The position numbers were made by a program, and so were the translations under genes. From the NCBI GenBank assembly GCA_964640635.1, contig CAZXFD010000001.1, forward strand, positions 177,302 through 241,301: a DNA stretch of 64,000 bases, in the 5' to 3' direction. Shown here one piece after another: positions 3,897-40,854 of the stretch. This stretch comes from an uncultured Gammaproteobacteria bacterium (lineage in GTDB: Bacteria > Patescibacteriota > Patescibacteriia > UBA1558 > S5-K13). Position 1 is the stretch's first letter; each line of letters opens with the position of its first letter. The notes under the pieces are model-generated. The model saw only the letters and a list, made by a program, of their open reading frames with translations. It was not told the origin of the DNA and did not search any database.

Positions 3897-4349
3897 ATGT
3901 ATTCCAAACAAGTATTAAAACATTTTCAAAGCCCAAAAAATCAAGGAAAGTTATTAAATCCAGATGCCGTTGGTCAGGTGGGTAATCCTGTTTGTGGAGA
4001 TATAATGAAGTTATATTTGAAAATAGACAAGAACAAGACAGATATAGGAAAAAGTAAAATACAAAGTATTAAATTTGAAACACTCGGTTGTGGAGCAGCA
4101 ATAGCATGTTCATCGGTAGTTACTGAAATTGCAAAGGGAAAAACCTTAGATTATGGACTTAATTTAGATAAAAAATTTGTATTAAAAGAACTTGGTGGTT
4201 TACCAGAAACAAAAGTTCATTGTTCAATGCTTTCTATTGAGGCGCTTAAAAAGGCAATTAATTCATATTTACAAAAAAATGATAGTTCAAAAAAAGATAG
4301 TCAAAAAATTAGTAAAAAATCCATTACTAGACCCAAAGTTAAAAAATAA
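3897..4349 (+). CDS. IscU/SufU-type Fe-S cluster scaffold (NifU N-terminal domain) with an odd Lys-rich tail
   Basis: Conserved Cys-containing motifs GNPVCGD, TLGCGAAIACSS and KVHCSMLSIEALKKAI. The tail NDSSKKDSQKISKKSITRPKVKK overlaps the next reading frame. Confidence 0.8.
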   Translation: MYSKQVLKHFQSPKNQGKLLNPDAVGQVGNPVCGDIMKLYLKIDKNKTDIGKSKIQSIKFETLGCGAAIACSSVVTEIAKGKTLDYGLNLDKKFVLKELGGLPETKVHCSMLSIEALKKAINSYLQKNDSSKKDSQKISKKSITRPKVKK

Positions 4350-4542
4350 AATAAATCAAATAAGAAAAATGCTCCAATTAGATGGAGGAGATTTGAAAGT
4401 AGTTGATTTTACAAAAAATGTTTTGAGTATAGAGTTGTTGGGAGTTTGTTCTCATTGTCCTATGGCGGAGATAACTATATCTGGATTTATTCAAGAAGAG
4501 CTTCAAAAAGTCATTCCAAAAATAAAAATTAAAAGAGTCTAA
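4279..4542 (+). CDS. Nfu/NifU C-terminal domain protein; start uncertain (ATG at 4279 or 4369) and possibly fused to the IscU-like gene by a frameshift
   Basis: ...KINQIRKMLQLDGGDLKVVDF...LLGVCSHCPMAEITI matches the Nfu-type CxxC domain. The domain begins upstream of the only non-overlapping ATG, at 4369. Confidence 0.55.
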   Translation: MIVQKKIVKKLVKNPLLDPKLKNKINQIRKMLQLDGGDLKVVDFTKNVLSIELLGVCSHCPMAEITISGFIQEELQKVIPKIKIKRV

Positions 4543-13184: not shown

Positions 13185-13340
13185 AAATTTTAAAGTATGA
13201 AGTATGAAGTTTGGAATATGAAATTTTAGTTTTTAGAGTATACTCGAATACTGAAATTAATTAGTCTTCGAGTGAAACCATGAGTTCGTCGAATGGTGGA
13301 GTCGAGAAGTTTAAGAATTCACGTTAAGTGGATTTTTTTA

Positions 13341-13372
13341 ATGAAAAAAGGACTCCGAGGAGTCCAAAATTT
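13341..13372 (-). terminator. Intrinsic terminator oriented for the minus strand, about 300 bp beyond the prs terminator
   Basis: Hairpin GGACTCC-ga-GGAGTCC. The minus-strand read is followed by TTTTTTCAT. Confidence 0.5.
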
Positions 13373-13651
13373 ACTTACTAAATATCAACAAACATTATAT
13401 AAAACTTTAACCTTGTTATAAGGCTTTGTTTAATTTGGTTATCAAATATATATTGCCAAAGTTTTAGTACAAGTTCATTGTTAATGTTTTTTTGTTTCTA
13501 AGTCTTCATAATTCTTCCTTTTGACCGATGGTCAATACCCTGTTTTTTTGCATTATTGCATTTGGTATAAATACCTACCATGGGTTGACTAGACTTATTG
13601 CTTCATAATTCCTCCTAAATCGTATTCTATAATTACATTAACTCATTTTTA

Positions 13652-13692
13652 TAAAAAAGGCAAGAAAAAAGGCCTCATTGATTTGGAGGCCT
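13652..13692 (-). terminator. Intrinsic terminator of prs
   Basis: Hairpin AGGCCTC-attgatttg-GAGGCCT. The minus-strand read is followed by TTTTTTCTTGCCTTTTTT. Confidence 0.7.
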
Positions 13693-13708
13693 AGGATTTA
13701 TAGTTTGG

Positions 13709-29632: not shown

Positions 29633-29679
29633 TTATTGCCAACCTTGGTTTCAGTTGATAGTAAATAAAAAAAGGTGGA

Positions 29680-29895
29680 TTATTCCACCTTTTGTTGTAG
29701 TTCATTAAAATTCTTGATGAAGACTTTGAAATCTTCTTCGTCCTTAATACAAATATAGGCAATGTCATCTGCATCTAGTTTTCCATCTGGAAATTGACTC
29801 TCGAATTTTTTTTCAAATTCGAATTTTTTCTCAGGTGGAATATTCAGAACAAATCTTGCGCAACGACAGGACTCTTCAATTGTGACTTCTTCCAT
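29680..29895 (-). CDS. Small hypothetical protein (71 aa)
   Basis: Shine-Dalgarno AGGGAGA upstream on the minus strand. No homolog recognised. Confidence 0.45.
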   Translation of the reverse strand: MEEVTIEESCRCARFVLNIPPEKKFEFEKKFESQFPDGKLDADDIAYICIKDEEDFKVFIKNFNELQQKVE

Positions 29896-29936
29896 TTATT
29901 CTCCCTTGTTTTATGTTTTCGTGCTATTGAATCTTT

Positions 29937-30355
29937 TCAGAAAATCTTCAAAGGCTTTTGCTCTTTTTCTGCTATTGTAGCAATGTCATTTATAGAAAGT
30001 TTGTCATATGGAAATTTTTTGCCAAAACTTGTTCTAAAGTTTTTGTTGGATGTGACAGAAATGCTTAGATTAAAGCATATGAAGTGTTCTAGTTTTTTGA
30101 TTTTTATTGATTTTGTACCGCGCTCTTCTTTGAACCCATCAACAAAGCTTATGAATAGATCTCTTTTGTCCCAAGGAATTGTTATAGTACAAAACTTTAT
30201 TCCAAAAATAAATTCTCCGCCGGAAAATTTTCCCTTGAAGTCCTTTTCAAATAAATCTTTAAAACCACCGTCTTTAAAGGTCGCATGGAAATAAGCTAAA
30301 TCTTTTTTCCATTGGGCTTTAGTGCTACGTGAGATTGTGTTTCATTAGTTTTCAT
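29937..30355 (-). pseudogene. Frameshifted gene: GGAGGA Shine-Dalgarno plus ATG, 19 codons, then a 135-codon ATG-less continuation in the -1 frame across an A_AAA_AAG heptamer
   Basis: Manual minus-strand translation gives MKTNETQSHVALKPNGKKI*. Slipping -1 at AAAAAAG (plus coordinates 30303-30309) continues as DLAYFHATFKDGGF...KPLKIF. Confidence 0.45.
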
Positions 30356-30460
30356 TTTTCCTCCTACTATAGTTTATTAATAATGAATATTATATATTTT
30401 TTAGTGTTTTGTCAATTTATGAAAGAAAGATGCTATAATAAATGTATTATTAAATAGAGT

Positions 30461-31021
30461 ATGGAAAATGAGTTAATAGAAAAATCTGATGAAGAATTGG
30501 TTGCGATGACCTTGTTCAATAAGGAGTCTTTTGTATTTTTGGTAAAAAAATATGAAAAACAATTATTGCGATATATTCTTAGAATTTCAAATATTTCTCA
30601 CGAAGAGGCAGAGGATGCTTTGCAGGAAGTATTTATAAAGGTTTATAGAAACTTAAATGAATTTGACAAGAGTCTTAAGTTTTCATCTTGGATCTATAGA
30701 ATAGCTCATAATGAAACAATAAATTACTATAGAAAATCAAAGGCAAGGCCAGAAAAAATTGAGCTAAATGAGGATTCGGATTTGATAGAAAATTTAATGT
30801 CAGATTTAAACACAGAACATGAAATAGATAATAAAATATTAAGAGATAAATTATTAAAAATATTAGATTCAGTAGATATAAAATACAAAGAAGTAGTATA
30901 TTTAAAATTTTTTGAAGAAAGAAGCTATGAAGAAATTTCAGATATATTAAAAAAACCCATAGGAAGTGTATCTATTCTTATAAGTCGTGCTAAAAAGAAA
31001 TTAAAAAAATTATTAATATAA
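30461..31021 (+). CDS. ECF-type RNA polymerase sigma factor
   Basis: Region 2 (LQEVFIKVYRNL...WIYRIAHNETINYYRK) and region 4 (SYEEISDILKKPIGSVSILISRAKKKL). Confidence 0.8.
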   Translation: MENELIEKSDEELVAMTLFNKESFVFLVKKYEKQLLRYILRISNISHEEAEDALQEVFIKVYRNLNEFDKSLKFSSWIYRIAHNETINYYRKSKARPEKIELNEDSDLIENLMSDLNTEHEIDNKILRDKLLKILDSVDIKYKEVVYLKFFEERSYEEISDILKKPIGSVSILISRAKKKLKKLLI

Positions 31022-31026
31022 AAATT

Positions 31027-31788
31027 ATGTCATTACAAGATAAATTATTAGAAAAAATCAAGAACATAAAACCAAGATCAAAATCATATTTTATTATAAA
31101 AAATATTTTGTATTGGTTGTTCTTTGTTGTTTTTGTGATTGTTGGTGCAGTTTCTACTTCTATTATTATTTTTATTGCAAAACATAATGATTGGGATATT
31201 CATCGATATGCAAATGATAGTATGTTGTCTTTTTTCTTTTTAACAATTCCATATATTTGGGTTTTTGTATTGCTAGTGTTTGTTGTTCTAGCATATTACA
31301 ACTTGAAACGCACCAAGAGGGCATATAAATATAAACTTTATAGCATTGTTTTATCCAGTATATTTTTAAGTATTGTGCTGGGTTTTATTTTGTATAATAT
31401 TGGTTTTGCGAAAACAATACAAACTTCTCTAGTAAAAAATATTTCAAGTTACAATAAAATGTTTTGCGAAAGAGCATCTCTCTGGCATCGGCCAGAGCGG
31501 GGAGTGATTGTAGGTCAAATAAAGGAGATAAATAATAATGAATTCATATTACAAGATCCTTATATGGAAAATTGGACAGTTATTTATGATAAAAATTTAG
31601 TTGGTATGAGTGATTTAATGATTGACAACAAAATAAAGGCATTAGGTTATCAAAAAGAACAAAGGAGTTTTTTTGCGGCTGAAATAAGAGAGTCTAGTTG
31701 TGGCTGTGGACATATCAATTGTAAATGTGGGCAAAGTGAAACAAAAATAAATAATATGCGTAATAATAAGTGTGGAGCTAATAATTAA
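31027..31788 (+). CDS. Polytopic membrane protein with a C-terminal Cys cluster, candidate anti-sigma partner of the ECF sigma
   Basis: 4 TM helices then a soluble domain ending SSCGCGHINCKCGQSE...NKCG. Separated from the sigma gene by a 5-nt gap. Confidence 0.45.
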   Translation: MSLQDKLLEKIKNIKPRSKSYFIIKNILYWLFFVVFVIVGAVSTSIIIFIAKHNDWDIHRYANDSMLSFFFLTIPYIWVFVLLVFVVLAYYNLKRTKRAYKYKLYSIVLSSIFLSIVLGFILYNIGFAKTIQTSLVKNISSYNKMFCERASLWHRPERGVIVGQIKEINNNEFILQDPYMENWTVIYDKNLVGMSDLMIDNKIKALGYQKEQRSFFAAEIRESSCGCGHINCKCGQSETKINNMRNNKCGANN

Positions 31789-31792
31789 TTTT

Positions 31793-31808
31793 TCTCGCAG
31801 TGGCGGGA
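31793..31808. repeat. GC-rich hairpin TCTCGC-agtg-GCGGGA, ending 8 nt before the ATG of the Cys-rich mini-protein gene
   Basis: Seen directly. Member of the CCGCCA-N-GGCGG hairpin family. Confidence 0.6.
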
Positions 31809-31816
31809 CAAAAAAA

Positions 31817-32111
31817 TATGCAAAATAAACACGTAGTATTTGTATCAGCAGCAGCACTTATTCTAACGATGGGAATAGTCGGCATTACAAATGCCTATTC
31901 ACTTTCAAAGAATAAAACAGTAAGCACAGAAACAGTAGAAAAATGTTCTTGTGGTTGCAACAAAGATAAGAAAGATTGCTCTTGCAATGGAACGGGTTCT
32001 TGTTTAAATAAACAAAATAAGAATAAAGGAGTTGGTGTTACATGTGGATCTAATAATGTTGAAAGTGGTGCTGGAGGTGCCAAAAAAAGTTGTGGATGCA
32101 AAACCCAATAA
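31817..32111 (+). CDS. Small secreted/membrane-anchored Cys-rich protein
   Basis: N-terminal hydrophobic segment then CSCGCNKDKKDCSCNGTGSC...CGSNN...CGCK. Confidence 0.5.
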
Positions 32112-40306: not shown

Positions 40307-40423
40307 TATTTATTGATTTTTTATAAAAAGCCGTTCTTTATTGGGCGGTTTTTTCTTTTACTTTATATGTGCTAAAATTTAAATAGGATTAGTATGTTCT
40401 AACCCTACTAACCAACTAATTTA

Positions 40424-40439
40424 CCCCGCCATGGCGGGG
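40424..40439. repeat. Perfect GC palindrome CCCCGCC-at-GGCGGGG, ending 12 nt before the desulforedoxin ATG
   Basis: Seen directly. The hairpin loop contains an ATG. Confidence 0.7.
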
Positions 40440-40451
40440 CAAGCTAACCAT

Positions 40452-40586
40452 ATGAACGTACAAAAAGAAGGAGAAAAGTATTATTGTGAAATTTGTGGAA
40501 ATGAAGTAACTGTAACAAAAGCTGGTGGAGGAGAGCTTATTTGTTGCGGAAAGCCCATGGAATTATTGAAGGAAGTGACTGAATAG
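40452..40586 (+). CDS. Desulforedoxin-like small metal-binding protein (44 aa), absent from the ORF track
   Basis: [39 protein letters not shown] has the CxxC...CC spacing and flanks of desulforedoxin and the Dfx N-domain. Confidence 0.65.
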
Positions 40587-40605
40587 AATTTAGTTGTTAG
40601 TGTTT

Positions 40606-40634
40606 TCCGCCAGAGGCGGATCAGCCTTCGGCTG
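40606..40634. repeat. Two adjacent GC hairpins (TCCGCC-aga-GGCGGA and CAGCC-ttcg-GCTG) downstream of the desulforedoxin gene
   Basis: Seen directly. Confidence 0.55.
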
Positions 40635-40647
40635 AAGAATTTAGAAA

Positions 40648-40680
40648 AAGAGTTGTTTTAAACGGCAACTCTTTTTTTCT
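40648..40680 (+). terminator. Intrinsic terminator
   Basis: AAGAGTTG-ttttaaacgg-CAACTCTT followed by TTTTTTTC. Confidence 0.7.
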
Positions 40681-40795
40681 TAATTTTTCTCGCGAAGCGG
40701 GATCCTGCAATAATTATAAAATATATGGAGACGTGGCCAGTTTCCTAATTTTCTAACCCTACTAACTTTCTAACCTCACTAACCCTCTAACCTCC

Positions 40796-40824
40796 TTGAC
40801 ACTATTTATTATTTTGCTATACTA
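40796..40824 (+). promoter_or_regulatory. Sigma-70-like promoter of the hrcA heat-shock operon (TTGACA, 16-17 nt spacer, TATACT)
   Basis: ttgacactatttattattttgcTATACT lies directly upstream of CIRCE. Confidence 0.55.
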
Positions 40825-40827
40825 AAT

Positions 40828-40854
40828 TTAGCACTCGTCTCTTATGAGTGCTAA
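40828..40854 (+). promoter_or_regulatory. CIRCE operator TTAGCACTC-N9-GAGTGCTAA overlapping the hrcA start codon
   Basis: Perfect match to the CIRCE consensus. The hrcA ATG lies inside the element. Confidence 0.9.

Follow-up and report, generated by a model that had tools for sequence, protein, structure and literature searches.

A gene on the minus strand of the 64-kb stretch of uncultured Komeilibacteria DNA analysed here (the window) has lost one base in each of two A runs. We found that the orthologues of this gene are in frame, that stimulators of frameshifting are absent at the break, and that an independent assembly reproduces the sequence. The locus is probably a genuine, recently frameshifted gene, a young pseudogene that arose through two replication-slippage deletions and heads a two-gene operon; both the loss of function and the replication-slippage origin are what we infer from these observations.

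Results

Layout of the broken gene

On the minus strand, an ATG at 30355-30353, preceded by AGGAGG at 30365-30360, opens a frame of 19 codons, MKTNETQSHVALKPNGKKI*, that ends at a TAG (30298-30296), just as the preliminary description of this DNA had it. The codons GGA AAA AAG (30310-30302) place an A_AAA_AAG heptamer at 30308-30302, in phase for tandem -1 slippage, and its identification as the heptamer used by dnaX was likewise correct. The -1 frame is open from 30341 to a TGA at 29939-29937 (135 codons). The first ATG, GTG or TTG in it comes only near its end, and it was therefore missing from the program-made list of open reading frames. This start-less frame had been described accurately, but the gene natively ends beyond its stop at 29937: a second deletion had been overlooked, and the native TAA lies at 29913-29911 (Table 1).

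As it stands, the ancestral gene runs from 30355 to 29911 and measures 445 nt; restoring two bases gives 447 nt (148 codons plus stop), and the window copy could yield the native protein only through two -1 events. A stretch of about 565 nt around the gene was left blank by an automatic gene caller. A plus-strand ORF with a TTG start (29794-30294, 166 aa) lies antisense to the gene, and gene callers might report it instead. We rejected it as a true gene and regard it as an antisense shadow, since only 92 of its codons are open in the orthologous locus L001 and the gene opposite is under purifying selection.

Table 1. Features of the broken gene and its immediate surroundings, in window coordinates
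Feature	Position	Strand	Basis or remark
Putative sigma-70-like promoter, TTGACA-17-TAATAT, upstream of the broken gene	30387-30415	-	10/12 consensus matches; consensus match only
Shine-Dalgarno AGGAGGA, 4 nt before the ATG	30359-30365	-	Conserved in all orthologues
Whole ancestral gene, Komeilibacteria-specific product	29911-30355	-	Five homologues, DNA alignments, repaired translation
Frame-0 remnant MKTNETQSHVALKPNGKKI, 19 codons plus TAG	30296-30355	-	Translation
Deletion site 1, A6 run plus G reading A_AAA_AAG in phase	30302-30308	-	Orthologue DNA one base longer
Open -1 frame, 135 codons, no usable start, protein body	29937-30341	-	Collinear with homologues
Deletion site 2, A5 run in GCAGAAAAAGAGC	29964-29968	-	Orthologue DNA alignment
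Native C-terminal tail AKAFEDFLKRFNSTKT*, third frame, TAA 29913-29911	29911-29961	-	Matches orthologue C-termini
Downstream partner gene, intact, 71 aa, own Shine-Dalgarno AAGGGAG	29680-29895	-	Follows the focal gene in orthologous loci
Two-way terminator-like hairpin closing the two-gene unit and the converging HI0933-like gene	29670-29693		Predicted from sequence

Homologues encode the protein in one frame

We searched about 5.8 billion proteins with the fusion translated as a -1 slip predicts (expected junction peptide, PNGKKDLAYFHATFK), and five homologues of 146-155 aa were found, each 70-79% identical to the query at 100% query coverage. The junction, ...LKPNGKKDLAYF..., was continuous in the alignment, with G-K-K-D-L-A invariant among the homologues, all five of which read ...NGKKDLAYF... 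across it in a single frame. These alignments show that the 19-codon frame and the 135-codon -1 frame are one gene. The preliminary description had allowed that the first 19 codons might prove unrelated in orthologues; instead, they are conserved. A separate downstream gene with its own start was rejected on two counts, the lack of a start codon until near the end of the frame and the homologues that span the junction.

Orthologous DNA was available from four distinct loci: L001 (identical to L004), L002, L003 and L005. L001/L004 represents one sequence, from the Candidatus Komeilibacteria single-cell genome S5_K13 described by Wiegand et al. 2021 (PMC8241940). L002 and L003 come from Logan assemblies, and L005 from a JGI metagenome contig whose start lies beyond site 1, leaving only site 2 covered.

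At site 1, the orthologues read AAT GGA AAA AAA GAT or AAC GGG AAA AAA GAT, while the window reads AAT GGA AAA AAG ATT; the G/A run is GGAAAAAAAGAT or GGGAAAAAAGAT in the orthologues and GGAAAAAAGAT, one base shorter, in the window. At site 2, the window has GCAGAAAAAGAGC (A5, 29968-29964) compared to GCAGAAAAAAGGGC (A6) in L002, L003 and L005. L001/L004 reads GCAGAAAAGAGGGC at this position, so that A6 is present in three of the four distinct orthologue sequences. Both gaps are private to the window, and each orthologous locus is one base longer at every site that it covers. Because of the one-base deletion at 29968-29964, the conserved C-terminus sits in the third frame, where window positions 29961-29911 encode AKAFEDFLKRFNSTKT*, matching the orthologue C-termini AKAFEEFLKRFNSART and AKTFEEFLKKFNSAKT. 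This second deletion alters only the last 17 residues and need not inactivate the gene by itself.

Synteny was conserved in L001-L003, in the order pseudouridine synthase gene or sigma-factor cassette, focal gene, small gene and converging HI0933-like gene. The promoter-like TTGACA-17-TAATAT is also conserved in L003, there upstream of an intact orthologue. We considered the upstream sigma-factor cassette as a cause of inactivation and rejected it, as L003 has the same upstream region with an intact gene.

The slippery heptamer lacks the signals of programmed frameshifting

The preliminary description had left two options for the break, an indel or a programmed shift. The homopolymer indel is borne out by orthologues that use one frame and carry one more base; a programmed shift is disfavoured by the missing stimulators and by the second break. 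In this alternative, the A6 allele would be functional, with some ribosomes slipping by programmed or compensatory -1 frameshifting, and the protein body would end in an altered tail, ...EQKPLKIF. Several features fit such a shift. The phase of the heptamer is exactly right, and with stimulation A_AAA_AAG ranks with the most shift-prone motifs of E. coli (PMC4066793). The signals for translation initiation are intact, and the downstream frame, open throughout, bears a signature of purifying selection. Frameshifting that acts on indels also forms a recognised class, termed 'compensatory' (Atkins et al. 2016, PMC5009743).

The heptamer itself is commonplace in DNA of 29% G+C and is weak evidence on that account. 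AAAAAAG occurs 101 times in the 64-kb window, compared to 75 +/- 8 expected, and 13 copies lie in the same slippery phase within intact, ordinary ORFs. Nor were stimulatory elements detected around the break. Within the 101-nt context, folding was no better than that of shuffled sequence (z = -0.60), and the sole local hairpin uses the slippery run itself. The 60 nt downstream of the heptamer, where a stimulatory stem-loop had been proposed as a check, form no stem-loop and fold worse than the shuffles (-5.7 kcal/mol, z = +0.81). The 20 nt upstream (CGTAGCACTAAAGCCCAATGG) contain no GGAGG-like or other Shine-Dalgarno-like element. For E. coli, Sharma et al. 2014 (PMC4066793) give a background of about 0.055%, which heptamers without stimulators raised only 2.1- to 10-fold; at such rates, roughly 0.5% or less, at most a trace of product would be expected. 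The two-frame layout and the slippery site are not conserved, since the five homologous proteins and every locus covering the site are single-frame, and a shift at the heptamer would leave the second frame break in the same gene unexplained. Taken together, these data make frameshifting an unlikely explanation of the locus.

Sequence conservation points to a recent lesion

Phase variation would treat the A run as a contingency tract, switched between on (A7) and off (A6) by replication slippage, with the assembly having caught the off state. The position of the break, a homopolymer at the gene's 5' end immediately after a disordered N-terminus, is indeed typical of a translational switch, and the remainder of the gene is undecayed. 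Homopolymer tracts of known contingency loci, however, are typically longer than the 6-7 bases present here, and the orthologues with GGG AAA AAA have only A6 when 'on'. Only identical copies of this lineage were retrieved, and the protein collection contained no on allele; among the 5.8 billion proteins there was no repaired allele of the window copy, the best match being 79% identical. The separate second deletion, in an A5-A6 run, argues for neutral decay over a single switch, and window genes contain 321 A/T runs of at least 6 without sign of switching. We consider phase variation improbable on this evidence.

Among intact orthologues, omega was 0.09-0.24, indicating purifying selection on the family; for the repaired window copy compared to the orthologues, it was 0.15-0.28, barely above the family range. 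At columns where the others do not vary, the window copy carries five private changes (Y to C, H to R, P to L, D to G and E to K), a count that omits four changes due to the second frameshift, and intact orthologues carry 2-8 in the same comparison. Besides the two deletions, the window copy is free of decay: the promoter-like sequence, Shine-Dalgarno, ATG, downstream gene and terminator are all intact. An undecayed frame together with intact operon elements suggests that the lesion is recent. There is also a separate reason for the transcription signals to persist: they serve the downstream 71-aa gene. An intact promoter, Shine-Dalgarno and ATG do not discriminate between a very recent pseudogene, a gene still in use and a sequence error.

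The pristine frame and start signals are also compatible with a 'pseudo-pseudogene', in which the ferredoxin-fold protein would be kept at a low level by unstimulated -1 slippage on A_AAA_AAG that compensates a fixed indel. Slippage might then have been selected to lower expression of the protein while the downstream 71-aa gene stays transcribed. We regard this version as very unlikely. If true, low-level slippage would be a first hint of compensatory frameshifting in a bacterium of the Candidate Phyla Radiation (CPR).

Both deletions are reproduced in an independent assembly

A sequencing or assembly error would mean that the organism truly has A7 and A6 and that both homopolymers were under-called. 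In favour of an error, each break is the loss of one base from an A run, as in the classic homopolymer error; the gene otherwise looks fully functional, and the source is a metagenome- or single-cell-type assembly. Searching for exact copies of the neighbouring 71-aa protein and of the sigma factor led to this genome in NCBI and in Logan assemblies, including a 68-kb contig of run SRR10083293. This de novo assembly matches the window at 100% identity over 10,216 and 10,561 nt, both deletions included, and no gene was called in the gap at the broken gene. The Logan contig may share reads with the deposited genome, so its identity excludes an assembler or polishing artefact but not an error in the reads themselves. 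A read-level homopolymer error is unlikely, and an exact contig of 68 kb would itself imply accurate reads.

The rest of the window is also intact, with 69 ORFs, a coding density of 91% and tidy gene boundaries. All 13 neighbouring genes compared by tblastn match L001 in a single frame, over about 15 kb of synteny. In codon alignments with L001, nonsynonymous divergence was low across all genes (pN 0.03-0.19) and dN/dS was 0.05-0.15, except for the 71-aa partner gene (0.31) and for GH113, where saturated synonymous sites made dN/dS not computable. The 64 kb yielded no further frame break, although its ORFs contain 787 A/T runs of at least 5, 321 of at least 6 and 107 of at least 7. The probability that two random hits on A/T runs share one gene is about 0.02, and two breaks in one 445-nt gene fit a gene no longer under selection. 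The independent assembly and the intact remainder of the window thus argue against sequencing error, which the preliminary description had entertained and which we judge highly improbable.

A generally error-prone assembly was rejected, because the sole other split candidate, NifU, proved to be a normal arrangement and the remaining overlapping ORF pairs hold distinct or complete domains. On the plus strand, the NifU_N gene (3897-4349, 150 aa) overlaps a +1 frame (4186-4542) with the NifU C-terminal domain (PF01106). The best 120 matches listed for NifU_N have only the NifU_N domain and are 120-160 aa long, and the exact 150-aa protein is present in the collection from both NCBI and Logan; judging by these matches, the two are probably separate overlapping genes. 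The overlap is rich in A6-A7 runs, and an ATG at 4279, a possible start of the second gene, has no Shine-Dalgarno. An alternative genetic code with TGA as sense is unsupported, as table 11 gives long ORFs and tidy gene boundaries.

The protein and its operon partner

The preliminary description had assigned the protein to no recognised family, and our searches of Pfam, NCBIfam, PHROGs, PADLOC and PDB sequences likewise gave no match. When 1.84 billion representatives were searched with a profile, the only addition was one distant relative (P0126, E = 7.6e-11). The gene is chromosomal and specific to Candidatus Komeilibacteria, a CPR lineage. An AlphaFold2 model built on the five homologues (pLDDT 68.7) has a disordered N-terminus (residues 1-23 of P0001), followed by a sandwich of beta-alpha-beta-beta-alpha-beta type and a long C-terminal helix, which places the break immediately ahead of the first strand. 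For this protein of about 148 aa, the model predicts a ferredoxin-like alpha/beta fold.

In every orthologous locus that reaches far enough, the focal gene is followed by a gene for an acidic partner protein (67-75 aa across loci). The 71-aa window copy (29680-29895, minus strand) is intact and under purifying selection, with an omega of 0.31 compared to L001, and no family match was found for it. The focal gene and its partner look like a conserved two-gene module, and this pairing is the one firm piece of context for the focal protein.

Other features of the window

A three-gene cassette at 30461-32111 on the plus strand encodes an ECF-type sigma factor (186 aa, Sigma70 r2 and r4), a membrane protein of 253 aa (multi-pass, C-terminus Cys-rich) that may be an anti-sigma factor, and a Cys-rich protein of 103 aa (CSCGC...CSC...CGC). 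It sits between the pseudouridine synthase gene and the focal gene, and likewise in L003, judging from the shared upstream sequence. The cassette is absent from L001/L004 and L002, in which the synthase gene directly precedes the focal gene.

Two intergenic gaps, 13185-13708 (524 nt) and 40307-40843 (537 nt), gave no Rfam or tRNA match, and tRNA-Thr(CGT) at 1320-1395 is the sole RNA gene found in the 64 kb. Each of the sixteen 4-kb bins has a positive GC skew, and about 60 of the 69 ORFs lie on the plus strand. Both observations are consistent with a window that lies wholly on one replichore and in which genes are strongly co-oriented with the leading strand.

Discussion

For the reading that we favour, a young pseudogene, we propose that replication slippage converted A7 or GGGA6 to GGA6 at site 1 (30308-30302), and that an independent one-base slippage deletion converted A6 to A5 at site 2 (29968-29964). 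Translation from the intact Shine-Dalgarno and ATG would end after 19 codons, and the protein body, having no start codon of its own, would not be made in meaningful amounts. There would have been too little time for further decay of the promoter, Shine-Dalgarno, start codon and downstream frame, which would explain their pristine state, and the transcript would still be needed for the intact 71-aa downstream gene. The dnaX-like heptamer lies at the break because a Lys-Lys pair, AAA AAA, lost one A: A_AAA_AAG would be the remainder of GGA AAA AAA GAT, carrying no recoding signal and allowing at most trace spontaneous slippage.

The locus is best annotated as one frameshifted gene, 29911-30355 on the minus strand, with two lesions, and neither as a recoding site nor as an empty intergenic region. 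It also calls for some caution elsewhere. At 29% G+C, in-phase A_AAA_AAG is expected by chance many times, and in AT-rich genomes the deletion of one A from AAA AAA automatically yields a dnaX-like heptamer at the break. The feature is ordinary, and it can be compared with several described systems.

With dnaX of E. coli (tau/gamma), the gene shares the same heptamer in the same phase. The dnaX site has an upstream Shine-Dalgarno-like element and a downstream stem-loop, both of which are lacking in the window gene. The dnaX shift is, moreover, conserved among relatives and gives a shorter product, whereas the relatives of the window gene are in frame and a shift would be needed for its main product.

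The layout also resembles that of IS1 and IS3-family transposases (orfA-orfB), in which a short upstream frame is followed by a longer start-less -1 frame with A_AAA_AAG in the overlap. In contrast, no transposase domains were found in the window gene, which is syntenic, chromosomal and single-frame in all relatives, and its overlap arose by deletion.

Rescue by poly(A) slippage in Buchnera and Blochmannia (PMC5009743) offers a third parallel, with a frameshift in an A run, a small AT-rich genome and a frame otherwise conserved. However, the runs in the bacterial example of transcriptional slippage quoted in that review (Atkins et al. 2016, PMC5009743) are 9 A's or T's long; those in the window are 6 and 5, which makes transcriptional slippage implausible as a rescue here.

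The locus shares with the homopolymer-slippage pseudogenes of AT-rich reduced genomes its one-base deletions in A runs, a truncated 5' ORF with a start-less open frame behind it, intact orthologues and more than one lesion per gene. Unlike those pseudogenes, the window copy would be very young, and it retains intact expression signals and stands upstream of an intact, conserved partner.
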